Shown here: positions 5,386 through 48,820 of the stretch, one piece after another
Position numbering within the stretch: the stretch's first letter is position 1
How the letters are laid out: every line of letters starts with the position of its first letter
Origin: a bacterium
Lineage (GTDB): Bacteria; Zhuqueibacterota; Zhuqueibacteria; Residuimicrobiales; Residuimicrobiaceae
Direction of reading: 5' to 3'
Length of the DNA stretch: 64,000 bases
NCBI GenBank assembly: GCA_035353815.1
Contig: DAOQAG010000001.1
Span: forward strand, 17,159 to 81,158
Made by a program: the position numbers and the translations under genes
Notes under the pieces: model-generated
What the model saw: only the letters and a program-made list of their open reading frames with translations
Told to the model about the DNA's origin: nothing
Databases searched by the model: none

Positions 5386-5403
5386 TTCCAGTCGTTTTTC
5401 ATC

Positions 5404-5433: not shown

Positions 5434-5445
5434 GCCCGGAGCCCT

Positions 5446-14626: not shown

Positions 14627-14671
14627 ATCCTGCCGATGCGCGTCAATCCCATAACTGCAGGAATACACCCC

Positions 14672-20525: not shown

Positions 20526-21911
<1,386 letters not shown>

Positions 21912-21923
21912 GCACCCGCCCTT

Positions 21924-27446: not shown

Positions 27447-27470
27447 TCCCAACCTCAATGATGGTTTGTG

Positions 27471-27525
27471 CAAAAAAATCCGCTGCGGCCGCCCCGGCTG
27501 GGGCTGCAAAATCACAGCGGATTTT
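27471..27525 (-). terminator. Rho-independent terminator after partner gene 1 (compound hairpin with a T-tract)
   Basis: On the minus strand: AAATCCGCTG ... CAGCGGATTT, enclosing an inner GCCCC/GGGGC hairpin, then TTTTTTT. Confidence 0.55.
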
Positions 27526-29746: not shown

Positions 29747-32700
29747 TTAAAAGTTGATCCTGATGCCGAACGTGATATCACGCGGATTCAGCCACCAGAG
29801 GGAATCGATGTTCGGATTATCGATATAGGACTTGTTCTCCTTGCGCACCTTGTTGCGCGCCGTGATGGCCGGGTCGTTATAGGGATTGAGCTCAAGGGCT
29901 TCATATTTGGTCCCTTCGGGGCGCAGATCACCGATCTTGTCGCTCCCCTTTTCATCCCCCTTCTCCCAGTCAAAATTGAGAGATTCGAGATAATCCACAT
30001 AATCATAATTGTCCGAAAAACCAGCAGAATTGAGATACTTGATATCGAGCACGTTGGTAAAATCAAGATAGAGCTGGCTCTCCATTTTCGCGATGCGGAT
30101 CGATTTGGCCAGACGCAGATCGAGATTATACCAGTTCTTCCAGCGCACATTGTCCACTACGCCCGGGATATTGTTGGGATTGTAGGTGACGTAACTGCCG
30201 GCCCGCCAGTCCCCGAGCAGGCTGACGTTGAAAGATTCGAACGGATGCAGGCCGGAGATTTGCGGACCAAATCCTTTGGGCGTGTGCAGATCGAGGTTCA
30301 TGCGGGCATAGGGGCGCGGATGCGGCCGCTCCTGATAGAGATTTTCGCGCAGGTAGGCCCGCTGTTCGTTGGGATTTTCATAATTGGAAACCAGCCCGAA
30401 ATAGCCGCTGGTGGAAACCTCATAGGTATAATTCACAAAACCGGTGATCCACTCGCCGCTCTGTTTGGTCAGGGTCGCCTCAAAGCCGCGGATATCCTGG
30501 TAGCGATTGTTCTCGGCCTTGTAGTAATCGACCGTGCCCTTGAAATTGTGATAATAGACCCAGCCGGCCTGATTGCTCACGTCCTTGTAATGGGCGGCGA
30601 GATTCAACAGCATCGTCCCGAAAAGACTCTGCGAATAGCCCAGTTCGTAGGAGACGGTCTTTTCCATTTCCATATTGGGATCGCCCAGGTAGGTGACCAG
30701 GCCGCTGCGTTCCTGCTGCATCCGGAACCGGTAGGAGGAATAGGCCTCCTGACGGAAATGGCCATAGTTGAAATAGAGCTTGCTGTTGTCGGTGATGGGG
30801 TGCGAAATGCCCAGGCGCGGACTCCAGTAGGTCCGGGATTTCGATTTCGCCTTGGCCACGTGGGTCGAGATCTCTTTGCCATATCCGGCCCCAAGATTGA
30901 CATCGTAGGCATCGAGTACGAGATAATCGCCATTCGGATGGACCTGATCCATGCGTAAGCCAAGGTTGGCGACAAAACCCTGATACTCGATCTTGTCCTG
31001 TGCAAAGGCACCAATGCGGAAGGGGAAGACGTTGTAGGTCATCGCGCGGTTCCAGGTATCCATGGAAGGGCTCACGGTACTGGATTTGATATCATAGTCA
31101 TTATAGACGGCCTGAACACCCGTCTTGAGCTGGTGCCGTGCGGAGATCTGGCTGGTCAGGTCGGCTTTGAAGGTGGTGGTGCTGTTCACGCTTTTGTCGC
31201 GCCCCAGGTTCATCCAGCCGCCCATCCGGTCACCGTTGATGCTGTTGGTGCCGTAGCCCCAGTACCCGTAGGGCATTTCATCGACAAAATAGCCGGGCAG
31301 GATCTGGTTCGTCCTGGTCGTGTCGCGCAGGCTCATCTGGTAGGTATTGGTGCGGTTGTATTGATACTCCAGGGCGACCTCATAGAAGGTGCGGGGTGAA
31401 AGCATGTGCGTCAGCTTCAGACCATGCACCTGCCGGTAAATGGCGGTGGGGCTGTAGTAGGCGGGCACATAGAGAACGGCCAGGCCATCGGTGCTGTTGA
31501 GCAGATCGGCGATCTCACTCTGATCGCGCAGGACATACCCGGTCGGTGTGGTGGTCCAGTTGTACGGGGAGACCGAGTAGACCTCGCCGTAGAGGCCGGT
31601 ATACATCAACTTCATGTTCCTGGCCGGATCGGAGGTCAGCTTGAGCTGGGTATAGTTCTCGTTGTAGCCGTCACGGGAGAGAGGATAGATGAACATCTCC
31701 TGTTCGCGGAAGTGGCTGAGGAAGAAGCGCGTATGGCCGAACTGATTCAGCAGGGGTACCGGACCGCCGAAGCCCAAATCCGCCACATAGTCGGGTTTGG
31801 TGATATCGCCCTGGCGGCGGTGCTGCCATTCATATACCTTTTTCGCCCCCTCGGCTGTAACGTCATTAGTGGGATTGGCATCCTGCAGGGTCTTGTCCGC
31901 CACCGACTGCCAGCCGTCAAAGTTGGGGTACTGGCTGCGCGTGTACTCATCCCAGGCGCCATTATCGGTGCCCGTGTAACAGACCGCCGGATCGAGATAG
32001 ACGCGGTTGAAATAGGACATGGGATCATAGAGGGAGAGGCCGAAATGCTTGGAGGCCGGGGGACTGTAATTAAGATTGGCGGTAAAATTGTAGCGTGCAG
32101 CATCCCCTTCCTTGGTGATCACATTGACCAGACCGGAACGGACGTTGCCATATTCGGCGTTGAACCCGCCTGTCTGGATCTGGATCTCTTTCACCGCGCT
32201 CATCGACAGCGCGGCGTAGGGAATATTGGAGCGCTCATCGTTCAGCGAGAGGCCGTCGAGCAGCATGATGGTCTGATTGGCGGCACCGCCGCGGACCAGA
32301 AGGCCTTCGCTGCCCTTCTGGATGCCCGCCTGGAGGACGAGGGCTTCACGCACGGTCTGCACCGGCATATTCTCGATCGTCGCGGTCTCGAGATTGGTCT
32401 GGCTGCTCGAGACATCGCGCTTTACCACCGGGCGCTGCGCCACAACCACGACATTCTCCCCTTCGATGGCCACACTTTTTAGGGCGCGGTTGACTTCGGT
32501 GGTGCGATCGATCTCGACGCGCACCTGCCGCACCTGGTAGGTGGCATAGCCCAGCATGGAGAAACGCAGATCATAGGTGCCGGGCGAAAGGTTAATGATG
32601 GTGAAGCGTCCATCGATGTTGGTCACGGCGCCATAGCTGGTGCCCTCGATGATGACATTGACGCCAGGCAGAGGCCCTCCGGTCTCCGCATCGGTGACCA

Positions 32701-32788
32701 CACCGGTCAATTTGCCGGTGGTGCCGGCAAACAGCCCGCAGGAAAGACCGAGTACCAGAATCAGAATCCATGTGTACAGTCTTGGCAT
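29747..32788 (-). CDS. SusC/RagA-like TonB-dependent outer-membrane transporter 1 (CarboxypepD_reg N-domain, plug, beta-barrel)
   Basis: 'FAGTTGKLTGVVTDAETGGPLPGVNVIIEGTSYGAVTNIDGRFTI' is the CarboxypepD_reg domain; the TonB box is 'ENVVVVAQRP'; the plug is 'LLVRGGAANQTIMLLDGLSLNDE ... GGFNAEYGNVRSGLVNVITK'; the C-terminus '...RDITFGIRINF' ends in an aromatic residue. Confidence 0.8.
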   Translation of the reverse strand: MPRLYTWILILVLGLSCGLFAGTTGKLTGVVTDAETGGPLPGVNVIIEGTSYGAVTNIDGRFTIINLSPGTYDLRFSMLGYATYQVRQVRVEIDRTTEVNRALKSVAIEGENVVVVAQRPVVKRDVSSSQTNLETATIENMPVQTVREALVLQAGIQKGSEGLLVRGGAANQTIMLLDGLSLNDERSNIPYAALSMSAVKEIQIQTGGFNAEYGNVRSGLVNVITKEGDAARYNFTANLNYSPPASKHFGLSLYDPMSYFNRVYLDPAVCYTGTDNGAWDEYTRSQYPNFDGWQSVADKTLQDANPTNDVTAEGAKKVYEWQHRRQGDITKPDYVADLGFGGPVPLLNQFGHTRFFLSHFREQEMFIYPLSRDGYNENYTQLKLTSDPARNMKLMYTGLYGEVYSVSPYNWTTTPTGYVLRDQSEIADLLNSTDGLAVLYVPAYYSPTAIYRQVHGLKLTHMLSPRTFYEVALEYQYNRTNTYQMSLRDTTRTNQILPGYFVDEMPYGYWGYGTNSINGDRMGGWMNLGRDKSVNSTTTFKADLTSQISARHQLKTGVQAVYNDYDIKSSTVSPSMDTWNRAMTYNVFPFRIGAFAQDKIEYQGFVANLGLRMDQVHPNGDYLVLDAYDVNLGAGYGKEISTHVAKAKSKSRTYWSPRLGISHPITDNSKLYFNYGHFRQEAYSSYRFRMQQERSGLVTYLGDPNMEMEKTVSYELGYSQSLFGTMLLNLAAHYKDVSNQAGWVYYHNFKGTVDYYKAENNRYQDIRGFEATLTKQSGEWITGFVNYTYEVSTSGYFGLVSNYENPNEQRAYLRENLYQERPHPRPYARMNLDLHTPKGFGPQISGLHPFESFNVSLLGDWRAGSYVTYNPNNIPGVVDNVRWKNWYNLDLRLAKSIRIAKMESQLYLDFTNVLDIKYLNSAGFSDNYDYVDYLESLNFDWEKGDEKGSDKIGDLRPEGTKYEALELNPYNDPAITARNKVRKENKSYIDNPNIDSLWWLNPRDITFGIRINF

Positions 32789-35035: not shown

Positions 35036-38000
35036 TTAAAAATTGAACTTTAGACCAATAGTGATATCGCGCGGATTTAGAAACGTCAGGGCTTCGATGT
35101 TGGGGTTATCGATATACGATTTGTCTTCCTTGCGTTTGGCATTGCGGGCGGAGATAGTCGGATCGTTGTTGGGATTGGCTTCAAGAGGATCATAGGCGAT
35201 GTCATCCGGCCGGTAGGTGCCGATGCGGTCATCCCCGCGGTTGTCGCCCTTCTCCCAGGAGAAACACAGGGACTGCATGTAGAACTCATAATCGTAGCTG
35301 TCCGAAAAACCGGCATAATTCAGGAATTTGAAATCGAAAACGTTGCTGGCATCTACATAAAACTGGACTTGCAGACCCCGGGCCGTGATCTGCTTGGAGA
35401 GGCGCATATCCAGATAATAGGTATCCTTCCAGCGCACATTATCCTGAATGCCGGCCAGATCGTTGGGATTGTAGGTATCATAGGCACCGGCACTCCAGCC
35501 GCCGAGGATGTTGAGATTGATATCGGCCAGCACCGGCAAGCCCAGGTCATGCGGAGTATGCAGATCGAGGTTGATCCGGGCGTAGGGCTGCGGCCGCGGC
35601 TTGGATTGGTAGGTGTTCAAGGCCACATAGTCCCGCTGCCGCGCCGGGTCCTGATAATAGCTCAACAGCCCGAAATAGCCGCTGGTCCGGACATCGTAGG
35701 TATAGTTGATGAATCCCGAGATCCAGCGCCCCACCGTTTTGTTCAAGGTCAATTCCAGTCCGCGGATATCGGCATAGTTGTTGTTCACCGCCTTGCTGTA
35801 ATTCACTGTGCTGTTGACGTTGATATAGTTGATCCAGCCGGGTTGGTTGGTGATGTCCTTGTAATAGGCGGCGATGTTCAGCAGGAAAAGGTCAAGGAGG
35901 TTTTGACTGTACCCCAGCTCATACTGGATGGTTTTCTCCGGCTGCAAATTGGGATTGCCCAGATAGGTCACCGAGCCGTTCTGCTCGCGCTGCAGCATGA
36001 AACGATTGGCAGAAGAGGGCTCCTGCGTAAAGTGGCCGTAATTGAAATAGAGCTTGGAGTTCGCGGTGATGGGATGGGATACGCCGAGGCGCGGACTCCA
36101 GAGCAGCGAGGATTTGGCGTCAGACTTGCGGACCGTTTGCAGCAGCTGTTTGCCCAGACCCTTGCCAAGATTCTCGTCATAATCGCCCAGCACCATATAG
36201 GTGCCATTGGGATCGCTGTAATCCATGCGCACGCCGAGATTGGCGATGAAACCCTGGAATTCGAGTTTGTCCTGCAGATAGGCCCCGATACGGAAGGGAA
36301 AAACATGGTAGAACATATTACGGCTCCAGCCGTCCGGCAGGGCGGGACTGTCGGTGAAGGAGCGGATGTCATAGTCGTTGTACACGATCTGCACGCCGGT
36401 CTTGATCTGGTTGCGATGGTTGACCTGGCTGGTCAAGTCCAATTTGAGATTGGTGGTCGCATTAATGCTCTTGTCCCGCCCCAGATTCATCCACGCGCCC
36501 ATGCGGTCGCCATTGATGCTCGGAGCGCTGTAGCCCATATAGCCGTAGGGCAGTTCGTCGACATAGTAGCCGGGGACCGGCTGGTAGATCCGGGCGGTGT
36601 CTCGATCCGAGGTCTTGTAGGTGTTGTTGCGGCTATAGTTATACTGCAACGACACATCATAAAACGTCCGGGTGCTGACCATATGCGTCAGTTGCATGCT
36701 GTAGACCTGGCGGTAGATCGAACTCGGACTGTAGTACCCCGGCATGTAGAGAATGGCCCGTCCCTCTGTGGCGGTGGGGAGATCAGCGATCTCGCTCTGA
36801 TCGCGCAGGACCCGGCCGTTGGGCAGGGTCGTCCAGTTATACGGCGAAACCGAATGCACCTCGCCGTATAAGCCGGAGAGGACCAGTTTCATTTTCGGGG
36901 TGAGGTCGCTGGTGAGTTTGAGCCGGGTATAGTTCTCGCCATAGTTATCGCGCGACAGCGGGAAAATGAACATATCCTGCTCGCGGACATGGGTGGCGAG
37001 GAAGCGGAGATGACCAAGACGCGATCCGATCACCGGCACGGGACCGCCAAAGGTGCCGTCGATGATATAGTCCGGCTTCTCGATATCCCCCTGCCGGCGG
37101 TGCTGCCACTCATAGAGACGCCGTGCACCCTCCGGGGTCAGATCGTTGCCGGGATCATTGTCTTGCAGGGTTTTTTCCGAATAGGAGTTCCATCCGTCAA
37201 AGCTGGGGTACTGGCGGCGGGTAAAATCGTCCCAGGCGCCATTATTCGTGCCCGTATAGCAGACCGCCGGATCCATATAGACCCGGTTGAAGAAGGAGTA
37301 GGGATCATAGATCGAAGGGCCGAAGTGTTTGGCGGCCGGCGGGCTGTAGCGCAGGATCAGCGCACCGTTGAATCGGCCCGGTTCGCTCTCCTTGGTGATG
37401 ACATTGACGAGACCGGCGCGCAGATTGCCATATTCGGCATTGAATCCGCCGGTTTGCACATTGATCTCTTTGACAGCGCTGAAGCCGACGGCGGTATAGG
37501 GGATATTGGAGCGTTCGTCGTTCAGGGAGATGCCGTCCATCATAAAGGCGGTCTGGCCGGCACTGCTGCCGCGCACCAGGATGCCCTCGCGGCCGGACTG
37601 GATCCCCGCCTGCAAGCTGAGCACCTGCCGCACGGTTTCGACAGGCATGCTCTCGATCTTGGCCGCCTCGATGCTCATCTGGCTGTTGGAGATATCGCGC
37701 ACCACCAGCGGGCGATCGGCGACAACCACCACTTCCTCCCCCTGCAGGGTTTCCGCCTTGAGCCGGGCATCGCTCTGGGTGGTCAGATCGATCTCTACGC
37801 GCACAGCGCGCATCGTGACCGTGGCATAGCCCATCAGACTGAATTTGAGGTCATAGGTTCCGGGCGGGATGTTGAGAATGAGAAAACGCCCCTCCAGATT
37901 GGTCACCCCGCCGTACCCGCTTCCGGGAATGGTGACGTTGACCCCCGGCAAGTTTTCCCCACTCTCGGCATCGGTGACCATCCCCGTGATTTTGCCTGTT

Positions 38001-38062
38001 GTGCCAGCGAACAGCATCCCCGCCGCAAGAAACAGCAGAATACAGAGCAATGCGCGATGCAT
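35036..38062 (-). CDS. SusC/RagA-like TonB-dependent outer-membrane transporter 2 (~70% identical to transporter 1)
   Basis: I chose the Met at 38062 ('MHRALLCILLFLAAGMLFAGTTGKITGMVTDAESGENLPGVNV'), which has a GGTGAGGA RBS; the 72-codon upstream extension is Arg/Pro-rich junk. TonB box 'EEVVVVADRP'; C-terminus '...RDITIGLKFNF'. Confidence 0.8.
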   Translation of the reverse strand: MHRALLCILLFLAAGMLFAGTTGKITGMVTDAESGENLPGVNVTIPGSGYGGVTNLEGRFLILNIPPGTYDLKFSLMGYATVTMRAVRVEIDLTTQSDARLKAETLQGEEVVVVADRPLVVRDISNSQMSIEAAKIESMPVETVRQVLSLQAGIQSGREGILVRGSSAGQTAFMMDGISLNDERSNIPYTAVGFSAVKEINVQTGGFNAEYGNLRAGLVNVITKESEPGRFNGALILRYSPPAAKHFGPSIYDPYSFFNRVYMDPAVCYTGTNNGAWDDFTRRQYPSFDGWNSYSEKTLQDNDPGNDLTPEGARRLYEWQHRRQGDIEKPDYIIDGTFGGPVPVIGSRLGHLRFLATHVREQDMFIFPLSRDNYGENYTRLKLTSDLTPKMKLVLSGLYGEVHSVSPYNWTTLPNGRVLRDQSEIADLPTATEGRAILYMPGYYSPSSIYRQVYSMQLTHMVSTRTFYDVSLQYNYSRNNTYKTSDRDTARIYQPVPGYYVDELPYGYMGYSAPSINGDRMGAWMNLGRDKSINATTNLKLDLTSQVNHRNQIKTGVQIVYNDYDIRSFTDSPALPDGWSRNMFYHVFPFRIGAYLQDKLEFQGFIANLGVRMDYSDPNGTYMVLGDYDENLGKGLGKQLLQTVRKSDAKSSLLWSPRLGVSHPITANSKLYFNYGHFTQEPSSANRFMLQREQNGSVTYLGNPNLQPEKTIQYELGYSQNLLDLFLLNIAAYYKDITNQPGWINYINVNSTVNYSKAVNNNYADIRGLELTLNKTVGRWISGFINYTYDVRTSGYFGLLSYYQDPARQRDYVALNTYQSKPRPQPYARINLDLHTPHDLGLPVLADINLNILGGWSAGAYDTYNPNDLAGIQDNVRWKDTYYLDMRLSKQITARGLQVQFYVDASNVFDFKFLNYAGFSDSYDYEFYMQSLCFSWEKGDNRGDDRIGTYRPDDIAYDPLEANPNNDPTISARNAKRKEDKSYIDNPNIEALTFLNPRDITIGLKFNF

Positions 38063-38280
38063 AGAATCCTCACCTAAAAAGAGGGCATGAACGGGCAATG
38101 ACGCCACGACCATAGGGAGTGCAATCCGTGCTGCACCACCCCCTGGTCCATGATTACAGGCGGCGCGAACAATGACCATCGGGGAACAGCCGCGAGGGTG
38201 CCCCCGGCAGGGAGGCGGCGTGCGCCGCCCTCTTGCCGGAGGTATCCTTGCCCCCGGTCCTGCCGGAGTCAATGACACCC

Positions 38281-38317
38281 GCAGAGAAAAGCCTGTGCGC
38301 CTTGCGGCGCACAGGCT
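38281..38317 (-). terminator. Rho-independent terminator after the 805-aa CBM-like gene
   Basis: Perfect 12-bp stem AGCCTGTGCGCC / GGCGCACAGGCT with a 4-nt loop, followed on the minus strand by TTTTCTCT. Confidence 0.65.
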
Positions 38318-38333
38318 CTCTCCGGAAAAACGG

Positions 38334-40751
38334 CTACTTCATCAGAGTCATCTTCATGGTTTTGGCAAAGCCGTTGCCCTCGAGGCGGTAGAAATAGATG
38401 CCGCTCGGAGCCACACTTCCATCCAGATTGGTGCCGTTCCAGGATACCCGGTAGCTGCCGGCATTCTGTTCGGCGTCAACCAGATTGGCCACAACCTGAC
38501 CCATCGCATTGAAGACCGTGAGGCGGATATGGCTCTTCATCGGCAGGTCGTAGGAGATGGAGGTCGTCGGGTTGAAGGGGTTCGGATAGTTGGCGTTCAG
38601 CGTGAATTCCGCGGGCAGGCCGCTGGTCGGGATTCTCTCGACCTTGACCCACTGCGAGCCGAACTTGTCGGTCGGGACGACGAAGACCGGGTTGGCATCG
38701 CTGATGGTGACGACACGGTTCATCGCAAAACCGGCTTCGTTGTCCATCGGAGTGGTGCCGGCATTCAGGGTGTCGGTGTAACCGGTGGAGTAGATGCCGT
38801 ATTTGTAGTAGTGGCTCGCGGTCGATCCCGCCGCGAACAGAACCTGGGTTGTCCAGATGCCGTCGCCGGCGGTGGCATCGCCGTTGGTGCCATCATCGTA
38901 CATCGAGATCAGGGTGCCGCCGACATCGGCAACACTCCAGCCCGCCCAGCCGCCGGTGCCGATCGGGGCAAAATCGCCGTTGATAACGACTTTTTCGACG
39001 GTCGGGAACGCCTTCTTGTTGTAGTAATCCTTGGCGCCGTTGGTGTTAACCGAGAAGGTCACGGTGACATCCTGGGAGAGCTTCTTCCCAGCCGGGGTCA
39101 CGTTCGGCTTGAAAGCATCCAGGACCATATCCTCGCCGGTGAAGACGAAGGTATGGTTGTCTCCACCTTCCCAACCACCATCCGCAAAGTTGCCTTCCGG
39201 ACGTCCGCGCCATTTCCAGCCCTGGGTCGTGCCGACGATGTCGGTGATGGCATGGGTGGCGGTATAGAGCGTCGGGACCACCAGGTCAGGCTGGGCGATC
39301 CACTCATCATTGTAGGCCCAACCATTGAAACCGCCGAGGACCAGGATCTGATCGGTGCCGGGGTTGAAGCCCTTGGCCAGCATGTCGGTCACATCCGCCT
39401 GGAAGGTGACGTTCGCGGTCTTGGTCTCGGTGTATTTGTCGATGTTGTTGTAGAAGGCCATATCCAGGACCTTGTCGACGCCCGGGACGGTCAGCTTGCG
39501 GTTGTCAATGCTCTCCCAACGATCGCCGGGCATCAGCACGTACTTGAACTCGAGCTGGGTGCCGACTTGATCACCCGGGAAGGTCTTGGTCAGGGCATAG
39601 ACGCCCGCTTCCGCAGTGGGCAGGCACTCATCCGCATCACCCGCCCAGCCGTTGAAGCTGCCGCGGATGACGACCTTGTCGGTGGCCGGATTGAAATTGC
39701 CATACTGCTGCTGAATGCCCATGTTGATGCGGAAGGTGACGTTGACAGGCCCGCCCGCGGTTTTGACGAACATCTGCGCCGGAACATAATAATCCGCGCC
39801 GAAGCAGGAGACGTAGGCGGTATCGCCGGTGACGGTGAAGGTGACACCGCGCGGTTTTTCGCCAGCCGGCTGGGCCGGATCATTGGTCTGCCACTGGATG
39901 CTGTCGGTCGGAGTCAGGGTGACCGGGTCGATCTCATACCAGGTCATCGATTTGTAGGGGCTGGCAGAGGGAGCTTCATCGTTGTTGCCGCCGTCGATCC
40001 AGAGCTTGCCGGTGGCATAGTTCCAGTTCATCGAAGCCGTAGCCGCGCCGCGGCAGAGGGTATCGGGAACCGCGAAGGGGCTGAACTTGTCGGGACGGGT
40101 GTAGCGCAGCATGAACTTTTTGTCATAGCGGGGTACGTAGACGCTGAGACCGTCATCCGAGACCGCCAGGGTACGGCCATAGCCATCCTGGGAATCGGTG
40201 ACATTGCCGAGATAGGAACCGTCGGCGCCGTAGGTCTCGACCGGGTTGCCCGGCAGGACGTAGCCCAGATAGATATCGCCGTCGACATCCGCCACCGGCG
40301 CGCAATACGAGGTCAGTTTTTGCGGGACAATACGCTGCAACAACTCGCCGGTTTTGTAGTCAAAGCGGTAGATATAGGGATAGGCCGTCCAGAGGACATT
40401 ACCATCATGGTCCATGCCCAGTCCGCGATGGGAATTGTAGAGGGTGTCGGTCTGGCCGAAGCCGGTGACCAGGTTCGCGCCGCTCCAGGGCGTGGGGGTG
40501 CCATCCGGATAGAAGCAGAAGATCTGCCGGGTAGCACCGGTCGTGCCATTGGCCTTGGTGATCGTGCTGGTGGCGCCATACATCTGCAGCCAGACCTTGC
40601 CTTCACGGTCAACGATAATGCCGTGCGAACCCATGCCACCGACCGGTTTGAAGTCATCGGCCGGGAAATTCCGGACGAACACCCAGCCAGCCGAGGCCGC
40701 CATAGCGGAGAGCAGAACCAGCGCAATGGCCAATACTAACATTCTTTTCAT
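38334..40751 (-). CDS. Secreted T9SS cargo protein with an N-terminal beta-propeller-like region and three starch-/carbohydrate-binding-module-like repeats
   Basis: Signal 'MKRMLVLAIALVLLSAMAASA'. Three repeats resemble CBM20/25-type modules ('VNVTFRINMG...GSFNGWAGD', 'ANVTFQADVT...GGFNGWAYNDEW', 'VTVTFSVNTN...GDFAPIGTGGWAGW'). CTD 'NANYPNPFNPTTSISYDLPMKSHIRLTVFNAMGQVVANL ... GIYFYRL ... KMTLMK'. Confidence 0.6.
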   Translation of the reverse strand: MKRMLVLAIALVLLSAMAASAGWVFVRNFPADDFKPVGGMGSHGIIVDREGKVWLQMYGATSTITKANGTTGATRQIFCFYPDGTPTPWSGANLVTGFGQTDTLYNSHRGLGMDHDGNVLWTAYPYIYRFDYKTGELLQRIVPQKLTSYCAPVADVDGDIYLGYVLPGNPVETYGADGSYLGNVTDSQDGYGRTLAVSDDGLSVYVPRYDKKFMLRYTRPDKFSPFAVPDTLCRGAATASMNWNYATGKLWIDGGNNDEAPSASPYKSMTWYEIDPVTLTPTDSIQWQTNDPAQPAGEKPRGVTFTVTGDTAYVSCFGADYYVPAQMFVKTAGGPVNVTFRINMGIQQQYGNFNPATDKVVIRGSFNGWAGDADECLPTAEAGVYALTKTFPGDQVGTQLEFKYVLMPGDRWESIDNRKLTVPGVDKVLDMAFYNNIDKYTETKTANVTFQADVTDMLAKGFNPGTDQILVLGGFNGWAYNDEWIAQPDLVVPTLYTATHAITDIVGTTQGWKWRGRPEGNFADGGWEGGDNHTFVFTGEDMVLDAFKPNVTPAGKKLSQDVTVTFSVNTNGAKDYYNKKAFPTVEKVVINGDFAPIGTGGWAGWSVADVGGTLISMYDDGTNGDATAGDGIWTTQVLFAAGSTASHYYKYGIYSTGYTDTLNAGTTPMDNEAGFAMNRVVTISDANPVFVVPTDKFGSQWVKVERIPTSGLPAEFTLNANYPNPFNPTTSISYDLPMKSHIRLTVFNAMGQVVANLVDAEQNAGSYRVSWNGTNLDGSVAPSGIYFYRLEGNGFAKTMKMTLMK

Positions 40752-40918: not shown

Positions 40919-42142
40919 TCACTGCAAGCCGTAATAGGGGGCACTCTCTTTTTGCGTATTGATGCGAATGATGGTCTGCGCATACTTGATCGTTTCGCCT
41001 TCAAGCACCTGTTCGCGCGTCATGTAGAGATTCGAGCCCGGACCCCAGGCGAAGAGCAGCGTCTTGGGGAAAAACTGCCCGGGATAGAGGGGCTCGTACG
41101 AGCCGGTCGGGCTGACCAAAAAGATGGCTTCGGGGGCATCGGTCCCGACATACATATAGCCATCCGCGGAAAAGGTGATACAGTAGACGCCGTAGCCGCC
41201 GCCCACCTTGGCCGAGAAATCAAAGTACTCTTCCACCGCACCCAGGTCCTGTCCATTGAAGGGGAAGCGCCAGACCTTGTCCGCGCCATCCTTCTTGCCG
41301 GCGACATAGAGATAGCCGTTGTAGACCCGCACCGATTTGAGGTTGGCGGTGAAGGGGAACTTGGTGATGCTCTTGTCCGGTTTGATACGATAGATGTCGG
41401 TATTGTTGCCCACACCCCAAAGGTTGTGGTTAACATCAAAATCCAGGTCATAGATCGTGCCCAGGCCGGAGGAGACGAAAGTGGCCGGCTTGGTCGCGGC
41501 CGCGGCGATCGAGAAGATGCCCTTGAGATTACGCGCGCAATAGAGCACGTTGCCGGGGCCCATCTTCATGGCCGACCAGAAGGTCTCACCGCCTTTGGGG
41601 GCATAATCGACGTATTTCTCAGCGCCCGGGGTGACGATCTTGACGCCGGCACCGGCATTGCTGACCACCAGCGAGGCATAGACATTGCCGGTCGCGTCCG
41701 TCGCAATACCGTAGGGAATCTCGGCGGGGGTGAAAGTCAGGAGATTCACCTGTGCCGCTTCGAGCTTGTAGGGCCACTTGTTGCTAAAGATCTCGGCATT
41801 TTTCACGGCGATGCGGATGGCGATCGAGTCGGAGACATAGATCGGTGCACGCACCTTCAACTGCGTCGCCGAGGCCTCCACCACCGTTCCCTTTTCAGCG
41901 TTGAAATAGACAATATTGTCCTCTTTCACCGTCGAAAAGTTGGAGCCGGTGAAGGTAATCAGGGTCACCCCCGAAAGCGCCACACTGGCCGGCTCCACCG
42001 CCGAGATGACCGCCGGGCTGCTCGTCTTGGCGTTGGGATCGTACAAGCTGGACGGATAGTCGTTACTGTCGCATCCCGCCAGCACAAAGATCAAGGCGGC
42101 CACCAGGAAGATCGCCTGTAAAATGATAAATCTCTTTCCCAT
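40919..42142 (-). CDS. Lipoprotein with an N-terminal IPT/TIG-like Ig domain and a beta-propeller-like (NHL/SMP-30-type) region
   Basis: Lipobox 'LVAALIFVLAGCDSN', IPT-like 'PVISAVEPASVALSGVTLITFTGSNF', and repeated 'G.(V/L)Y(V/C)' blades. Confidence 0.5.
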   Translation of the reverse strand: MGKRFIILQAIFLVAALIFVLAGCDSNDYPSSLYDPNAKTSSPAVISAVEPASVALSGVTLITFTGSNFSTVKEDNIVYFNAEKGTVVEASATQLKVRAPIYVSDSIAIRIAVKNAEIFSNKWPYKLEAAQVNLLTFTPAEIPYGIATDATGNVYASLVVSNAGAGVKIVTPGAEKYVDYAPKGGETFWSAMKMGPGNVLYCARNLKGIFSIAAAATKPATFVSSGLGTIYDLDFDVNHNLWGVGNNTDIYRIKPDKSITKFPFTANLKSVRVYNGYLYVAGKKDGADKVWRFPFNGQDLGAVEEYFDFSAKVGGGYGVYCITFSADGYMYVGTDAPEAIFLVSPTGSYEPLYPGQFFPKTLLFAWGPGSNLYMTREQVLEGETIKYAQTIIRINTQKESAPYYGLQ

Positions 42143-42187
42143 ATGAAACGTCCTCATCTAATGATCAACGGATCAACCTTCAGTGAA

Positions 42188-43195
42188 TTAGATGCCGAGC
42201 CTGCAGGTGAAGCGGTGGACATTATTGAACACATCCATCGGCGAATAGGAGTAATCGATGCTCACGCCGAAATTGGTGTTCACGCCGAAGCCGGCCGTGA
42301 ACCCGTAATCATCCTGCCTGGTGATGTAGCCGGCGCGCAGGGCGAGCAGATCCATGAGCTTGTACTCGGCGCCAAGATTGAGGTATTCGGGAAAATCGCG
42401 CGGATGGACCGCATCGATCGAGAGCAGCAGGTTGTGATTTTTGCCGATCGCCGGAACCAGATCGAGAGCATCCATCGAAAATCCCACTTTGAAGGTCAAG
42501 GGCAGCTGAAAACCCTCACGCTCGTACTTGACTTCCTGAGAAAAATTGCGCACGCACATGCCGAATGCCAGACTCTTGAAGCCGGTTTTGTAGAGTGTGC
42601 CGAAATCAAAGGCATAGACGCTCTTGAGGTAATCCTTGTTATCCGTAACATAAGGCGCGGTATTGTTCAGGGGGATGGTGACATGACCGAGATCCTGATG
42701 CACATACTTGACCTGGCCGCCCACCGAGAAGCGGTCGGTCAGATCGATCGCATAGCCGAGTCCGATGGTCCACGCGCTCGGGCCGAATTTGCCGGTATCC
42801 AGAAAACCCTGCTCGTTATCCGCGACGACCGTGCCATCGAGATCGCCATAATCAATGGCCATGGCGCTGACGCCAAAGGTGCCGTACTGACCGCGGAAGG
42901 GCCGGCCAGCGAGTGAGAGGGCCAGATACTGGATATCTGCGATCCAGGTCATCTGCGTGAATGAGGCATCAAGATTCTTGATACTGCCGGCCATACCGGC
43001 GGGATTGTAAAAGAGCGCGGAACCGGAACCTTCCACCGTGGTGAAGGCCTCCCCCATGCCGGTGGCACGGGCATCGGTGCCGACACTGAGAAACTGGCAT
43101 CCGGTCTGGGCGAGCTTTTTCTGAGCCTGGCCATCCGTATAAAAGGCGCCTAGCACCAGAAGAACGGATACGATACAAACGATCATACGCTTCAT
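42188..43195 (-). CDS. Outer-membrane beta-barrel of the FadL/PorV superfamily (candidate PorV-like T9SS shuttle)
   Basis: Signal peptide, then 'GTDARATGMGEAFTTVEGSGSALFYNPAGMA', which matches the N-terminal motif shared by FadL and PorV/LptO barrels. The protein is amphipathic beta-strand-rich and ends 'FTCRLGI'. Confidence 0.5.
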   Translation of the reverse strand: MKRMIVCIVSVLLVLGAFYTDGQAQKKLAQTGCQFLSVGTDARATGMGEAFTTVEGSGSALFYNPAGMAGSIKNLDASFTQMTWIADIQYLALSLAGRPFRGQYGTFGVSAMAIDYGDLDGTVVADNEQGFLDTGKFGPSAWTIGLGYAIDLTDRFSVGGQVKYVHQDLGHVTIPLNNTAPYVTDNKDYLKSVYAFDFGTLYKTGFKSLAFGMCVRNFSQEVKYEREGFQLPLTFKVGFSMDALDLVPAIGKNHNLLLSIDAVHPRDFPEYLNLGAEYKLMDLLALRAGYITRQDDYGFTAGFGVNTNFGVSIDYSYSPMDVFNNVHRFTCRLGI

Positions 43196-43235: not shown

Positions 43236-45317
43236 TTAGCGGATGACGACAAACTTGCGAATAGCTTTCTGGCCGTCGGGCGTTTCAAAGACCACGATAT
43301 AGAGCCCGCTGACGACGGTCTGAGCCGAGGAGGTAATGGAATTCCAGGCTTCATCACCGCTGCCATTGGTGTGCTCGATGGTATTGATCAGGTCGCCACG
43401 CTCGGTAAAGATCTTGATCGTGCAAATGCCGGGAATGTTATAGAACATGATCCGGTCCGGTCCGCTGTCACCGAACTGCAGGTCCCTGGCGCGAATGCTG
43501 TAGGGATTCGGGACGATGCGGATATCCGACAACGATTCTCCCGCCTTGCGCTTGAGATTGGTCGGATTGATCGTCTTGGCATAAAAGATACCGCTGTGCA
43601 GGGAGCCGCCGGGATTGGCCGTGGTTTGGTTCTTGCTGCCATCATCAAAGGAGACGATATAGTAGTAATAGTCGAAACCGCGGATGGCTGTCATATCGTC
43701 AAAACTATTGACGACCTGGGGATTTTTGGTGCCCTTGCCGCACGCAAAAATCTCCTCAAAAAGGGTGTCGGGGGTATGGATGGCCCGGTAGATTTTATAA
43801 CCGGCAAACCCCGGCCAGCTTTCGGCATTGTTCGACCATTTGAGCTGGATGCGGTCGCCGCCGCCGGCGACTTCGAAAAAGCTCGGGGCCGGCGGGGGTA
43901 CCGGAATCTTGTAGCTGGCCTTGAAATTGGCGGCGGCGCGCTTGAAGGTCTTGATCAGCGAATCGCGGCCGGTGTAAACCCACTTGTCCTTGTACTCATC
44001 CTTGTCGGTGGTCGTCGAACCATCCGGCAGCACATAGGGGCCCTCTTCCTTGAGCCACTTGGCGCCGATGGTGTAGCAGGACTTGCGGTCGAGGCCAGCG
44101 ATGCCCTCGGCCAGGACGATGTGAACGCTGTCGCCCGGCGCCAGGGTATAAGGCCCGAAGCCGGCGCACTGGGAGAAGCCGCCGACCGTGCCCAGATACT
44201 CATCCGCCGCCTGACCCGAGGCGATGACGCCATCGGCATGGCTTTTAGCCGGGTGGCCGGCGGTCATCGCCGCGTACTCCTGGGTCATCTTGGGCTCGTT
44301 GTAGGGATCGTTGCCCGAGGTGATGGTGACATCCGAACCCAGGTACTGCGTCGTCGTCGGCTGGAGCTTGTCATTGCTATGGTCGGTAGCACTCTTGTCG
44401 GCATGAAGCACGGCAAAACCTGCATAATGCGGCGCGGTCAGGTGGCCGTCGCCATTCTCGCGGTTGTCCGGAGCACCGATGCAGTCAAAACCGGCCTTGG
44501 AATGCTGGCCCTTCCAGCAAAAGAGCGAGAGGTACTTCTCGATCCCATCCTGGTCGGAGACCCACATGGTGTCGTTCATTTCATTGTGACCCCAGGCCGC
44601 CGACTGCGGCAGGATACTCAGGCCATAGACGCAGGCCTCCTTGGAGACCGCATAGCGGTGCTGAAAGAAAAAGACCACCCCGGTCAGGGTCTGATTGACC
44701 TTGGTGCCCTTGGTGTCGATGATGCCGGTATTGACAAAAGTGTATTCCTGAATAAAGTAATTGTCATGATACTGCTGGGCAAATTGATAGATCTTGCGCT
44801 TTTCGGTGATGCCCATCTGGGTATTGGCCACCGTGTACAGATAGCGGTCGGCGGTCAGGTTGGGATCGACCTCATCGACGAAATCCATCAGATCAAGCTT
44901 GCCGCCGGAGGTGCCATCGACATAGACCGTCGATTTGTCGTGGCGGCCGTAGAGCTTGAATTGGGAGGGCATCCATTCGCTCAACTCGTTGAGGACGCGC
45001 GGGCCGACATGCACCACTTTGAATGGATAGGTCTTGCCGGCAATCGGATCGTTGTAGTTGGTTGCGCCAATCCACAGGGCCTTGGCCGCCTTGCAGTCCT
45101 GATATTCAAACAAGGCCGGCCACTGCAGGCCGTCTTGCTGATCGGCCACCAAATGCCGCCGGCCGACTTCCTGTTCGTAGCCGGCGCTGGAAAACCAGTC
45201 ATGCAGCATACCCGTAGCCAGCCATTTGGTGTCATCCGCCTGGACCGGATGAAGGGCCAGGAGCAGCGTGGCAACAAGGCTGGTCAGGATCAGTAGTGTT
45301 TTTCGTCTCATATCCAT
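43236..45317 (-). CDS. Partner 3: divergent paralog (~40% identity) of the partner family, with a T9SS-type CTD, downstream of transporter 3
   Basis: Signal 'LLILTSLVATLLLALHPVQA', 'FAQQYHDNYFIQ', 'IQLKWSNNAESWPGFAGYKIYRAIHTPDT', and C-terminus 'VPNPYSIRARDLQFGDSGPDRIMFYNIPGICTIKIFTERGDLI ... SGLYIVVFE ... RKFVVIR'. Confidence 0.6.
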   Translation of the reverse strand: MDMRRKTLLILTSLVATLLLALHPVQADDTKWLATGMLHDWFSSAGYEQEVGRRHLVADQQDGLQWPALFEYQDCKAAKALWIGATNYNDPIAGKTYPFKVVHVGPRVLNELSEWMPSQFKLYGRHDKSTVYVDGTSGGKLDLMDFVDEVDPNLTADRYLYTVANTQMGITEKRKIYQFAQQYHDNYFIQEYTFVNTGIIDTKGTKVNQTLTGVVFFFQHRYAVSKEACVYGLSILPQSAAWGHNEMNDTMWVSDQDGIEKYLSLFCWKGQHSKAGFDCIGAPDNRENGDGHLTAPHYAGFAVLHADKSATDHSNDKLQPTTTQYLGSDVTITSGNDPYNEPKMTQEYAAMTAGHPAKSHADGVIASGQAADEYLGTVGGFSQCAGFGPYTLAPGDSVHIVLAEGIAGLDRKSCYTIGAKWLKEEGPYVLPDGSTTTDKDEYKDKWVYTGRDSLIKTFKRAAANFKASYKIPVPPPAPSFFEVAGGGDRIQLKWSNNAESWPGFAGYKIYRAIHTPDTLFEEIFACGKGTKNPQVVNSFDDMTAIRGFDYYYYIVSFDDGSKNQTTANPGGSLHSGIFYAKTINPTNLKRKAGESLSDIRIVPNPYSIRARDLQFGDSGPDRIMFYNIPGICTIKIFTERGDLINTIEHTNGSGDEAWNSITSSAQTVVSGLYIVVFETPDGQKAIRKFVVIR

Positions 45318-45343
45318 TCCTTCTCGATTAGGGGATGAGAAAA

Positions 45344-48300
45344 TTAAAAATTGTAGTTCAGCGTGATGCCGAAAAAGATCTGCCGTGGATTGAAGAAATT
45401 GAGAAAGGTCTGATTCGGCATATCGATATAGGCCTTGTCGTCAAGTATCTTTTTAATCTTGCTGTCGGCTACTTTTTGCCACTGGCCCTCGACATACTGC
45501 ATATAACGCCCGGACGGCCCTTCATAGTAGACGGCGCGCGTGCTGGGGGCGGTGACCGTATTCACATCCGATACCCACTCCATCGGTACGAACTCGACAT
45601 CATCGTCCCGGTAATCGCCGGGCTGATCGCTGCCGGGGATATTGTTGTAGCCCAGATGACGGGCAATGGACTGGGGCAGATGGAGCGATTTCATGTAGTA
45701 ATTATAATCATAGATGTCGACGTGGGCATTGCCGGAAAGGTACTTGTAGTTGATGGCATTGTAGACATCGACAAAGCCCTTGAGCTCGACCGGGCCGAGA
45801 TCGAAGGTCTTGGAGAGTTTGAGGTTCAGGCCGTACCAGTCTTTATACTGGGTGTTGTAGCTGATGCCGGCGATATCCTGGGGATTCCAGGTCATCCAGT
45901 AGCCGGCAATCCACTGCGCCGTGGTCGTAAAATGCCAGTCGCCGAGGATCGCGCCGAAATCGGTGGGGGTGTTGAAATCCAGATAAGCCTTGACCCGCGG
46001 CCGCGGCCGCGGTTTGGACTGAACCGGATTGCTCTTGTTGTACTCGCGCTGCGCCGCGGGATCTTCATACTGGTAGGCGCGGCCGAAATAGCCGGAGGTC
46101 TCGACGCGGTATTCATAATTGACGTCGCCCACCAGCCACCGCCCCATCGTGCGGGAGAGATCCACTTCAAAGCCGCGGATATCCTCGTACGAGTTGTTGG
46201 TGTTCTTGTAATAATTGACCTTGCCGTCATAGCTGATGTAGCGGACCGAATAGGCCTGGTCGGTGATATCCTTGTAATAGGCGGCCATGTGCAGCAGGAA
46301 ATTATTAAAGAGGGCATGATCGTAGCCTAACTCATAGGCGACCGTCTTTTCAAAGGGCACCGTCGGATCGCCATAGCGGCTCAGGGCATTGATGCCGGTG
46401 CGCTGCACGCGGTAGAGGCTCTCCGAGGTCGGGATCTGCCGGTAATGGCCGTAGTTGAAATAGAGTTTGGAATTCTCCGTGATCGGATGCGAAATGCTCA
46501 TGCGCGGGCTGAGAATCCAGCGCGGCTTGACATCCTTGGATTTGTACTGCGCATCCAGGTTGCTGGTATATCCCTGGCCAAAAAAGGTCCGGTCATAGGT
46601 GGAGACATTATACCACTGGCTGTTGGGGGTATAATAATCGAGGTTGGCGCCGACAGTGGCAATAAAGCCTTCGTACTCCAGCTTGTCGAGCAGATAAAAG
46701 TTGCCACGGATGGGCTTCTGATTGACATTGTTCCAGAAGTTGCCCTCGGGCAGATAGGCGTTGTAGGCGCCGTAGGAGAGCTTGTAATCATCCATGACCA
46801 CTTCGACGCCGCTCTTGATCTGATTGCGGCGATTGACCTGGCTGACCAGATCGAGTTTGCCGCTGTAGGTCATGTACTTGCTGTAATCGCGGGAGACGCC
46901 GACAGCGCCACCCATCATGAAATCACCGTCGATGCCATAGACCGGCGTGGTGCTGAAGCCGAAGGGGGCTTCATCGACGGAATAGCCGGGGATGATTTCG
47001 TATTTGGCGGTTTCGTCACGATAACCGCCGGGATTGGTGAAGTATTTTTTCTGCGAATATTTCAGCTGGAAATCGTAATAGGTGCTCTTGTTGATAAAGT
47101 GGGTCAGTTTGGAGGAAAAGGTCGAATAGAACCGCGAGGTCGGCGAAAAATAGATGTCGGTGTAGATGCGCGTCGGTACGGTGAATCCCGCAGAGGCCAT
47201 CTGCGCCGCAATATCATCCGGGCTGCTCATGATCGAGGTGCCGCCGGAGAGACTGTAGTTGGTGCCATAGGTTTCACCGTAGAGGCCGCTCAGTGAGAGT
47301 TTCATCGAGGGGGTGATGTCGGCGCCGAGACGCAGCAGGGTGCTCTTGTCGAGCAGATCCTTGCGGGACATTTCAAAAAGGTACTTCTCGCTCTCCTGGC
47401 GCCCGGAGATGAAGAAGCGCAGGTTGCCGAGCTTTTTGCCGATGAGCGGCACCGGGCCGCCAAAGCCGAAATCAGCGAGATAATCGGGTTTGGTGATGTC
47501 GCCCTGCTTGCGGTGCTGCCATTTGAAGATGGTCTGGGCCGCTTGCGGGGTCACATCATTGGTCGGGTCGTCGTCGGTCAGCGAGGTCTGCGAGACGGCA
47601 TTCCAGCCGTCAAACTCGGGATACTGACGCCGCGTATAGGCATCCCAGGCGCCGTTCTTGGTGCCGGTCCAGCAGACGGCATCATCGAGATAGGGGCGCA
47701 GCCAGTACGAATCGGCGCCAAAGGGCGAGACATCGCCGAAATACTTTTTCAGGTAGCTCTTGCCGGAATTCCAGGGCTGGGCGTTGGTCCGAAATGTGAA
47801 GGTGCCGCTGAGACGACTGGGATCGCCCTCGCGGGTGACCACATTGACCAGGCCCGAACGGACGTTGTTGTACTCGGCCCCGAAGCCGCCGGCCTGCACG
47901 GAGACCTGCTTGACGGCACTGAGAGGAACCTTGGCGATCGGGGTATTGTCGCGCTCATCGCGCAACGAGATGCCGTCGACCATAAACAGGGCTTCCTCCG
48001 AACCGCTGCCGCGGATCGAGAGGCCCGAAGTAACACCGGCCTGGATGCCGATGGCCTCGCCCACCGAAGAGATCGGCAGATTCTTGATCTGATCGGAAGT
48101 CACCTGCAGCTCGCTCGCCGCCAGGTCCTTCTGGATCACCGGCCGTTCCGCGCGCACCGTGATCTCTTCGCCCACCAGCGATTGTTCTTTCAGCCGGATA
48201 TTCTGGTTGGTGGTCAGGTCGATATTCACCTTGACCCCGGTGACCGTAACCGGGCTGAAGCCGATGAAAGAGATCTGCAGGTCATACGTTCCCGGCGGAA

Positions 48301-48499
48301 CATTCAGGATGGTGTAGTGGCCATCCAGATCGGTAACCGCGCCAAGGCTCGTGCCTTTGATCAGGACGTTGGCCCCGGGCAACCCCTGGCCCGTGGCCGA
48401 ATCGGTGACCGAGCCGGCGATCTTGCCGGTCGTCCCCGCCAGAATCCAGGTTGCGGAACCGAGTACCAGCAGCAAAACCAGTAGCCGACGAAGCTTCAT
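45344..48499 (-). CDS. SusC/RagA-like TonB-dependent outer-membrane transporter 3 (divergent paralog)
   Basis: The Met at 48499 has a GAGGAGAAA RBS: 'MKLRRLLVLLLVLGSATWILAGTTGKIAGSVTDSATGQGLPGANVLIKG'. TonB box 'EEITVRAERP'; plug '...FMVDGISLRDERDN...GGFGAEYNNVRSGLVNVVTR'; C-terminus '...RQIFFGITLNYNF'. Confidence 0.8.
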   Translation of the reverse strand: MKLRRLLVLLLVLGSATWILAGTTGKIAGSVTDSATGQGLPGANVLIKGTSLGAVTDLDGHYTILNVPPGTYDLQISFIGFSPVTVTGVKVNIDLTTNQNIRLKEQSLVGEEITVRAERPVIQKDLAASELQVTSDQIKNLPISSVGEAIGIQAGVTSGLSIRGSGSEEALFMVDGISLRDERDNTPIAKVPLSAVKQVSVQAGGFGAEYNNVRSGLVNVVTREGDPSRLSGTFTFRTNAQPWNSGKSYLKKYFGDVSPFGADSYWLRPYLDDAVCWTGTKNGAWDAYTRRQYPEFDGWNAVSQTSLTDDDPTNDVTPQAAQTIFKWQHRKQGDITKPDYLADFGFGGPVPLIGKKLGNLRFFISGRQESEKYLFEMSRKDLLDKSTLLRLGADITPSMKLSLSGLYGETYGTNYSLSGGTSIMSSPDDIAAQMASAGFTVPTRIYTDIYFSPTSRFYSTFSSKLTHFINKSTYYDFQLKYSQKKYFTNPGGYRDETAKYEIIPGYSVDEAPFGFSTTPVYGIDGDFMMGGAVGVSRDYSKYMTYSGKLDLVSQVNRRNQIKSGVEVVMDDYKLSYGAYNAYLPEGNFWNNVNQKPIRGNFYLLDKLEYEGFIATVGANLDYYTPNSQWYNVSTYDRTFFGQGYTSNLDAQYKSKDVKPRWILSPRMSISHPITENSKLYFNYGHYRQIPTSESLYRVQRTGINALSRYGDPTVPFEKTVAYELGYDHALFNNFLLHMAAYYKDITDQAYSVRYISYDGKVNYYKNTNNSYEDIRGFEVDLSRTMGRWLVGDVNYEYRVETSGYFGRAYQYEDPAAQREYNKSNPVQSKPRPRPRVKAYLDFNTPTDFGAILGDWHFTTTAQWIAGYWMTWNPQDIAGISYNTQYKDWYGLNLKLSKTFDLGPVELKGFVDVYNAINYKYLSGNAHVDIYDYNYYMKSLHLPQSIARHLGYNNIPGSDQPGDYRDDDVEFVPMEWVSDVNTVTAPSTRAVYYEGPSGRYMQYVEGQWQKVADSKIKKILDDKAYIDMPNQTFLNFFNPRQIFFGITLNYNF

Positions 48500-48820
48500 A
48501 ACGGATTTCTCCTCTTGTTGAAAAGGTAGAGTGAATTGGGGGTATACGTGATGGCTGCCGCGTTGCAGGGCGTCCAGGAAGAGTAAAAAAAGCTGCATGC
48601 CGCTCCTTGCCACGCCCCCACAACGTGGAACATCTTGAAATATGGCGGACACCCATGGAGAGGCGTGATGAGCACACCCTGAAAACCTCCGCTGGCAGTG
48701 GAAGGCAGTTGGTCACTCATTGCTGAGAGCAGTAGTTCGGTGCGAGGCTGATGACCCTGAAATATCCTAGGATCAATATTCATAGTCTACCACTTTTCCC
48801 CCACAAAGTCAATACTTTTA

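Follow-up and report, generated by a model that had tools for sequence, protein, structure and literature searches.

Gene pairs of a TonB-dependent transporter and an extracellular-type partner in a conserved locus of Zhuqueibacterota and other phyla

The stretch of DNA analysed here, referred to below as the window, comprises 64,000 nucleotides of a Zhuqueibacterota genome (GenBank assembly GCA_035353815.1, contig DAOQAG010000001.1, positions 17,159 to 81,158 of the forward strand). Between positions 43236 and 48499 it carries two adjacent genes, one for a TonB-dependent transporter (TBDT), named T3, and one for a partner protein, P3. Two related pairs, T1/P1 and T2/P2, lie further along the same window. 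T3/P3 represents one type of pair, type A, and the other two represent a second, type B; here we describe the type-A pair, its relation to the type-B pairs and the locus that they share with genomes of other phyla. Coordinates are positions in the window, and all features lie on the minus strand unless marked (+).

The transporter T3 and its partner P3

T3 (45344..48499) encodes 1051 amino acids beginning with a signal peptide, and P3 (43236..45317; 693 aa) follows 26 nt after it. A sequence-only reading of this region had proposed exactly this arrangement, and both the open reading frame (ORF) listing and our own translation agree with it: T3 has AGTTGKIAGSVTDSATGQGLPGANV at residue 21, and its C-terminus reads FFGITLNYNF, with Phe as the final residue. 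All motifs quoted for P3 are likewise present (FAQQYHDNYFIQ at residue 179, GYKIYRAIHTPDT at 506, VPNPYSIRARDLQ at 602 and CTIKIFTERGDLI at 632), as are SGLYIVVFE at 670 and RKFVVIR at 687. The start codon of T3 is an ATG at 48499, preceded by an AGGAGA ribosome-binding site. A public gene call on an identical JGI metagenome contig starts 33 codons earlier and yields 1084 aa (window 48499–48598; 6720–9974 on L084/L085); the 1051-aa start is preferred because the family alignment, the signal peptide and the AGGAGA site all fit it better.

Three Pfam families were detected in T3, namely CarbopepD_reg_2, CarboxypepD_reg and Plug. The N-terminal region forms a carboxypeptidase-regulatory-like beta-sandwich (48191..48427, residues 25–103; PF13715 E 4e-21, PF13620 E 4e-20), for which PDB sequence searches gave 6ytc and the SusC N-terminal domain of 9hfj. 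The plug domain (47780..48130, approximately residues 124–240; PF07715 E 1.8e-9) was paired by profile comparison with the Cir, PfeA and YncD plugs. A TonB-box-like EEITVRA (48149..48169, residues 111–117) lies in a low-confidence linker and was assigned by eye; in the family alignment A117 is invariant and V115 nearly invariant, and a strict TonB-box regular expression matched 36 of 110 transporters. The AlphaFold2 model of T3 (pLDDT 83, pTM 0.78) arranges these parts in the order N-terminal beta-sandwich, disordered linker containing EEITVRA (pLDDT below 50 for residues 106–128), plug, helical insert of about 80 residues and large barrel, the last bearing an insertion of about 100 residues near its C-terminus. 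T3 combines the general TBDT layout, a plug inside a large beta-barrel (PF07715 and Foldseek), with a carboxypeptidase-regulatory-like domain placed ahead of it.

Whether T3 can be called SusC-like depends on what the term is taken to mean. Foldseek searches with the T3 model returned PfeA, PirA, FusA and FepA first (E about 1e-22), with SusC appearing only from rank 16, and the predicted structure has a generic TBDT fold, which resembles SusC no more than it does siderophore receptors. The cut-off of the SusC/RagA model TIGR04056 (368.25 bits) was reached by neither T3 (87.8 bits), T2 (70.2 bits) nor T1 (74.9 bits), the matches being limited to N-terminal parts of the proteins (approximately residues 24–300, depending on the transporter). 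A profile of the transporter family searched against the PDB retrieved N-terminal domains and plugs only, and no full-length SusC. Given a score of 88 against 368 bits and a generic TBDT fold, the earlier description of T3 as SusC-like is true of its architecture and false as a statement of family membership.

The partner is more difficult to place by sequence. No Pfam family was found in P1, P2, P3 or 46 relatives, save for four weak CHU_C matches, and a PDB sequence search with P3 gave no match. The AlphaFold2 model of P3 (pLDDT 88.6, pTM 0.84) has three parts: a supersandwich, an Ig/FN3-like beta-sandwich and a C-terminal domain (CTD). The predicted body (43908..45233, residues 29–470) structurally matches galactose-mutarotase-like supersandwiches. 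The Ig/FN3-like sandwich (43638..43892, residues 476–560) was delimited from the secondary structure of the model; no Pfam fn3 match was obtained in P3, and source databases name its relatives either 'fibronectin' or hypothetical. P3 starts with a type I signal peptide and has no lipobox. Across the partner family a lipobox-like motif occurs in one of 110 members, and 83 of the 110 have no cysteine in the first 40 residues. Sequence, predicted fold and anchoring signals together indicate that P3 is not SusD-like: there is no SusD sequence match, the predicted fold is mostly beta rather than alpha-helical and TPR-like, and a lipoprotein signal peptide with its cysteine is all but absent from the partner family. 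Likewise, the SusD/RagB lipoprotein expected beside a SusC is not found next to T3, whose downstream partner belongs to no Pfam family.

The CTD (43239..43520, residues 600–693) is divergent yet highly conserved, and of the kind found in type IX secretion system (T9SS) cargo. P3 itself stays below the cut-off of the type-A CTD model TIGR04183 (17.8 versus 23 bits) and has no PF18962 match. Among 47 partner relatives, 29 match the PorZ C-terminus (best E 1.9e-6) and 17 match TIGR04183 (E ≤ 1e-2, that is, 0.01). When a CTD profile built from 110 partners was compared by hhalign with a profile of 72 bona fide type-A CTDs encoded in these loci, the two aligned over 75 columns (probability 95.3%, E 2.1e-8). 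The aligned region takes in the motifs PNP(F/Y) and SG(I/L)Y as well as the basic one at the terminus, and it is interrupted by an insertion of about nine residues. Judged from this alignment, the partner CTD is homologous to T9SS CTDs. It is also the most conserved part of the partner, with a mean column identity of 0.735; across both paralogue types and several phyla, 29% of its columns are at least 95% conserved, versus 14% in the body. Although the CTD is a cleaved signal in ordinary cargo, here its strong conservation suggests a retained, specific interaction. A precedent exists in PorZ, whose CTD is uncleaved and which is anchored at the cell surface by PorQ (PMC10947112).

Ancestry and breadth of the pairs

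The type-B pairs of the window consist of T2 (35036..38062; 1008 aa) with P2 (32852..35005; 717 aa) and T1 (29747..32788; 1013 aa) with P1 (27537..29729; 730 aa). By BLASTP, T3 is 41% identical to T1 and 42% to T2, while T1 and T2 share 62%; the partners give parallel values, with 39% for P3 and P1, 40% for P3 and P2, and 58% for P1 and P2. An identity of roughly 40–45% between the third pair and the other two had been given in the sequence-only reading, close to these measured ranges of 41–42% for transporters and 39–40% for partners. All alignments of T3 and P3 to pairs 1 and 2 are full-length, with E values from 1e-154 to 0, so that homology extends over the whole partner, far beyond chance, and a relationship through the CTD alone is excluded.

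The common history of transporter and partner was examined in 110 adjacent pairs, separated by a median gap of 23 nt. Distance matrices of the transporters and the partners were strongly correlated (Mantel r = 0.90; 0 of 999 permutations reached 0.90), and average-linkage clustering into four groups (63, 41, 5 and 1 pairs) was concordant between the two proteins in 110 of 110 pairs. T3/P3 clustered with type A, and T1/P1 and T2/P2 with type B. A minor third cluster of pairs (L064, L067, L071, L082 and L083, and also L061) was likewise concordant; the transporter of this cluster is as far from type A as from type B, and its partner is nearer to type A.

Distances between the two types (about 1.0) exceed those within a type across phyla (0.52–0.68), which argues that the pair was duplicated as a unit before these phyla diverged. 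An A/B duplication that predates the split of KSB1/Zhuqueibacterota, Calditrichota, Ignavibacteria and Fidelibacterota is thus supported by the distances. Type-A orthologues of T3/P3 in other phyla show 48–68% identity. The two type-B pairs in the window are a later, lineage-specific duplication. In the sequence-only reading T3/P3 was an older copy of one cassette; the pair does prove to be the older and more divergent paralogue, but as an orthologue of a distinct type, A, it is not simply another copy.

The same reading had suggested that the partner is an ancient and conserved companion of the transporter, and had pointed to co-diversification as the test. Both the distance matrices and the clustering of the 110 pairs uphold this idea, as does gene order, since in 69 of the 72 loci where this could be tested a TBDT is encoded directly upstream of the partner. 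Within types, the signal is of a different nature. In 37 loci holding both types, the distances of adjacent transporters and partners correlated at 0.88 and 0.76, and those of non-adjacent transporter/partner combinations at 0.74 and 0.84. Since non-adjacent genes correlate equally, the within-type signal reflects co-inheritance of the locus and is no proof of pairwise co-evolution; a specific co-evolution of transporter and partner was therefore rejected as unproven.

The partner family is broad. At least 1520 homologous proteins were found at E ≤ 1e-3, and at least 570 species genomes contain relatives. When 1.84 billion cluster representatives were searched with a profile, 528 clusters (50% identity) scored at E ≤ 1e-30. 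Record titles assign the family to KSB1, Calditrichota/Caldithrix, Melioribacteraceae/Ignavibacteriales, Fidelibacterota/Neomarinimicrobiota, WOR-3 and Delongbacteria, and the nearest named relatives are those of KSB1/Zhuqueibacterota. A transporter homologue is on record for a cultured species, Caldithrix abyssi.

Longer relatives have the partner body fused to a right-handed beta-helix (DUF1565, Beta_helix, Pectinesterase-like) or to BNR/Sortilin/YCF48-type propellers; they include P0246, P0248 and P0276 (about 1450–1600 aa) and P0326, P0342 and P0345 (about 1090–1260 aa). The partner body thus keeps company with carbohydrate-type modules. The beta-helix- and propeller-fused relatives end in an ordinary, above-threshold Por_Secre_tail, and in the three examined for context (P0246, P0248 and P0326) no TBDT gene was found directly upstream; one of the three loci has a shorter barrel protein with a carboxypeptidase-regulatory domain about 3.5 kb downstream. 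The special CTD therefore goes with the transporter-paired form of about 700 aa.

The conserved locus and its surroundings

Gene context was surveyed by tblastn of the window proteins against 83 loci from species-representative genomes, with the matches tiled. The conserved order is type-A transporter, type-A partner, PorV/PorQ-family barrel, TIG lipoprotein, beta-propeller T9SS cargo, type-B transporter and type-B partner, sometimes accompanied by a GHL10 enzyme. This order recurs in a Calditrichota genome, in a Melioribacteraceae chromosome (with GHL10), in a Marinimicrobia metagenome-assembled genome (MAG) and in KSB1 MAGs. The sequence-only reading had overlooked that the pair is regularly accompanied by genes for a PorV/PorQ-family protein, a TIG lipoprotein and a beta-propeller.

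The first of these, located 40 nt after P3, encodes an outer-membrane barrel of 335 aa (42188..43195). It exceeds the cut-off of the PorV/PorQ family model NF033709 (203.9 versus 90 bits) and falls below those of the equivalog models NF033710, NF033711 and NF052325 for PorV, PorQ and PorV2 (83.1, 88.5 and 48.0 bits against 250, 220 and 325 bits). A PorV-like gene is immediately next to the partner in 55 of 74 loci and within 9 kb downstream in 50 of 51. The reverse look-up, starting from the barrel, gave the same association: three of three homologues (53–55% identity) adjoin transporter/partner pairs, and in two of these three loci tandem barrels stand alongside two partners. In those with tandem genes (L093, 6961–9002; L094, 6955–8996), the two PorV/PorQ-family genes lie between the type-A partner and the type-B transporter, which would provide one barrel per partner. 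In L001 and several Marinimicrobia loci the type-A partner and the barrel are instead separated by an additional gene, whose product of about 190–380 aa belongs to no Pfam family.

Next come a TIG-domain lipoprotein with the lipobox LAGC (40919..42157; 412 aa; PF01833 E 8e-12) and a beta-propeller T9SS cargo protein with CBM20-like inserts (38334..40751; 805 aa; TIGR04183 35.9 bits, weak CBM_20). The TIG lipoprotein is present in 49 of 51 loci and a type-B partner in 42 of 51. Elsewhere the 805-aa protein has as its orthologue a conserved protein of about 450 aa with a beta-propeller and a CTD (31% identity at the N-terminus, E 3e-28; 43% in the CTD), into which three CBM20-like repeats of the FRINM...GSFNGWA type have been inserted; these are otherwise found only in the closest relatives, L004 and L005. 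At the far end of the cluster, a 1049-aa protein combining GHL10, Big_5 and a T9SS CTD (24366..27515; PF02638 E 5e-37, TIGR04183 39 bits) is a candidate enzyme of the locus. Its gene is also present in the homologous locus L003, and it occurs within 9 kb in 5 of 51 loci.

Just downstream of the cluster the window holds genes for a sigma-54-dependent response regulator, a histidine kinase and a family-9 glycosyltransferase of the heptosyltransferase type (20526–23267 and 23292–24347). In two KSB1-type loci, a divergently oriented GAF/sigma-54 activator gene is found upstream of the type-A transporter, while a Melioribacteraceae locus has a Reg_prop/Y_Y_Y sensor kinase and a GerE regulator instead. 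Regulation of the locus seems to be lineage-specific. The intergenic region upstream of T3 (48500..48820; 320 nt) contains one promoter-like site (48784–48812), but its consensus match was not significant when compared with shuffled sequences, a promoter and terminator scan gave no more than shuffling would, and no Rfam regulatory RNA family was found anywhere in the window. Immediately upstream of T3 and on the same strand is a gene for a PIN and PhoH-like ATPase protein (48821–50167), beyond which a UvrD-type helicase gene diverges. These neighbours are the same on the source contigs, but in other phyla they do not accompany the locus.

Other observations in the window concern a cytochrome gene and several sets of ORFs. 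A 642-aa protein (17778–19706) has many CXXCH multihaem motifs (Cytochrome_C7, c3, Paired_CXXCH) fused to a membrane domain of the cytochrome b561/Ni_hydr_CYTB kind, and a similar cytochrome pair adjoins the transporter/partner locus in L092. Long antisense ORFs of up to 855 aa, such as those at 38172–40739 (+), 43371–45296 (+) and 45335–46330 (+), and many others, run opposite the real genes; since their translations are repetitive and of low complexity, they most likely arise from the G+C content of 60% and do not represent genes. Three further long ORFs, at 4693–6459, 13625–15205 and 15494–17185 (588, 526 and 563 aa), gave no Pfam match at E ≤ 1e-5.

Proposed function and known counterparts

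The explanation that we favour, with moderate confidence, is that T3/P3 is the type-A copy of an anciently duplicated transporter–partner module inherited with its locus, an analogue of SusC/SusD in which P3 would be a barrel-anchored, glycan-binding protein. For secretion, retention of the CTD, contacts and ligand, we infer the following course. P3 would cross the inner membrane via Sec and be exported through the T9SS. It may then be kept on the surface by its PorZ-like CTD, bound to the neighbouring PorV/PorQ-family barrel in the way that PorQ holds PorZ. There the supersandwich body would bind an extracellular polymer, most likely a glycan freed by the T9SS-secreted proteins of the locus, and would pass it to the cognate transporter for TonB-energised import. 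Such a system would be a functional analogue of SusC/SusD assembled from unrelated parts.

Several points weigh against this explanation. Within types, transporter and partner distances correlate no better than those of non-adjacent genes of the locus, and the contacts of P3 with the barrel and with the transporter are inferred. Most loci carry one barrel per two partners. The CTD could simply be cleaved, with P3 released or attached to lipopolysaccharide, and its high conservation could have another cause. The supersandwich is also found in proteins unrelated to sugars, such as the P1 domain of YidC, which leaves glycan binding by P3 a supposition. As for the substrate, relatives of the GHL10 enzyme are reported to act in one case on peptidoglycan, as a lytic transglycosylase (PMC6016235), and in another on starch, as a degrading enzyme (PMC9967864), and the CBM20-like inserts, which hint at an alpha-glucan, do so for this lineage only. 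Uptake of muropeptides was also considered, given that Fidelibacter needs exogenous muropeptides and that the GHL10 protein Cwp19 acts on peptidoglycan; it was set aside as speculation, as the locus does not discriminate between muropeptides and an alpha-glucan or another substrate.

Among the other explanations, the one that fares best takes P3 to be a T9SS-secreted enzyme with the supersandwich as its scaffold, for instance a glycoside hydrolase, lyase or epimerase, that breaks down an extracellular polymer, the products being imported by T3; its CTD would be cleaved and no stable complex would form. We regard this as unlikely. The supersandwiches of GH15, GH65, GH94, GH116 and aldose 1-epimerase share only 7–12% sequence identity with P3, and the GH15, GH65, GH94 and GH116 enzymes carry a catalytic (alpha/alpha)6 domain, whereas P3 has none.

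It is far less probable that T3 works outward, exporting P3 or helping to display it, in the manner of Oar, the Myxococcus TBDT needed for PopC secretion. The N-terminal carboxypeptidase-regulatory-like domain and the length of about 1050 aa give T3 a general likeness to Oar, and the tight pairing of the two genes would suit such a role. PMC6434023 shows that protein secretion can depend on a TBDT. However, P3 already has a T9SS-type export domain, many other T9SS cargo proteins with enzyme or binding modules are encoded in the locus, as is usual for loci of nutrient uptake, and Pfam and NCBIfam searches gave no match to a family specific for Oar.

That the three pairs are ordinary SusC/SusD pairs too divergent for the models to recognise is scarcely credible: the order of transporter and partner, the domain before the putative TonB box and the secreted glycan-related neighbours do resemble a polysaccharide utilisation locus, but the partner is predicted to be mostly beta, with neither a SusD Pfam match nor a lipoprotein cysteine, T3 scores 88 against 368 bits, retrieves no full-length SusC from the PDB by profile search and is placed by Foldseek behind siderophore receptors, and a genuine susCDE operon is reported from another part of the Melioribacter roseus genome (PMC3534657).

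Systems that pair a TBDT with an extracellular partner in a locus resembling those for polymer utilisation are of a known kind; what distinguishes this one is a dedicated barrel, together with the partner family and the T9SS-type domain proposed to anchor it. We found no description of the locus in the literature, including the genome papers on Caldithrix, Melioribacter, Fidelibacter and Zhuqueibacterota, subscription journals being outside the scope of the search. More tentatively than the favoured explanation, we consider it possible that the locus encodes an undescribed outer-membrane machine for nutrient capture, widespread among FCB phyla outside Bacteroidia, in which a binder exported by the T9SS sits permanently with its uncleaved, hyper-conserved CTD in a dedicated PorV/PorQ-like barrel and forms a three-part complex with a non-SusC TBDT. 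Such a complex would be an independent evolutionary solution to the task performed by SusC/SusD and a new, non-secretory use of the interaction between T9SS CTDs and barrels. Anchoring of the CTD in the barrel, if true, would widen the roles of T9SS components from secretion to stable surface machinery.

Sediments, digesters and the deep ocean harbour large numbers of the phyla concerned, KSB1/Zhuqueibacterota, Calditrichota, Ignavibacteria and Fidelibacterota (Marinimicrobia). Most of their members are uncultured, and polymer uptake in them has been deduced largely by analogy with the SusC/SusD pairs of Bacteroides. A seven-gene outer-membrane locus that recurs across these phyla around a 700-aa protein with no Pfam family is a strong candidate for a main uptake system, and would serve annotation pipelines as a new marker of polymer-uptake loci outside Bacteroidia.

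Extracellular binders that capture a ligand and deliver it to a TonB-dependent transporter are known from BtuB-BtuG, TbpA-TbpB and HasR-HasA. Partners of the BtuG, TbpB and HasA type are lipoproteins or free hemophores with other folds, and to our knowledge none of these systems has a T9SS CTD or a PorV-like barrel.

With respect to anchoring, the nearest counterparts are PorQ-PorZ, PorV-PorU and the PorP/SprF-like barrels that serve type-B CTD cargo, in which an uncleaved CTD can be held at the surface by a barrel (PMC10947112). The P3 CTD has the PorZ C-terminus as its best NCBIfam match, and a barrel gene lies next to P3. In contrast, the body of P3 is unrelated to PorZ, the barrel scores below the PorV, PorQ and PorV2 equivalog cut-offs, and the module goes with transporters rather than with the machinery of secretion; that the CTD is retained, as documented for PorZ, is here our proposal.

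The closest counterpart in overall organization is SusC/SusD (RagA/RagB). There too, a TBDT gene is immediately followed by that of a secreted partner, a carboxypeptidase-regulatory-like domain precedes the plug and the TonB box, the latter putative in T3, the locus encodes glycan-related proteins that are secreted or lie at the surface, and pairs multiply by duplication as a unit. The systems differ in that the partner described here has a predicted supersandwich, an Ig-like domain and a T9SS-type CTD in place of a SusD match and a lipoprotein cysteine, in that T3 is below the SusC cut-off, and in that an extra barrel of the PorV/PorQ family forms part of the conserved unit.

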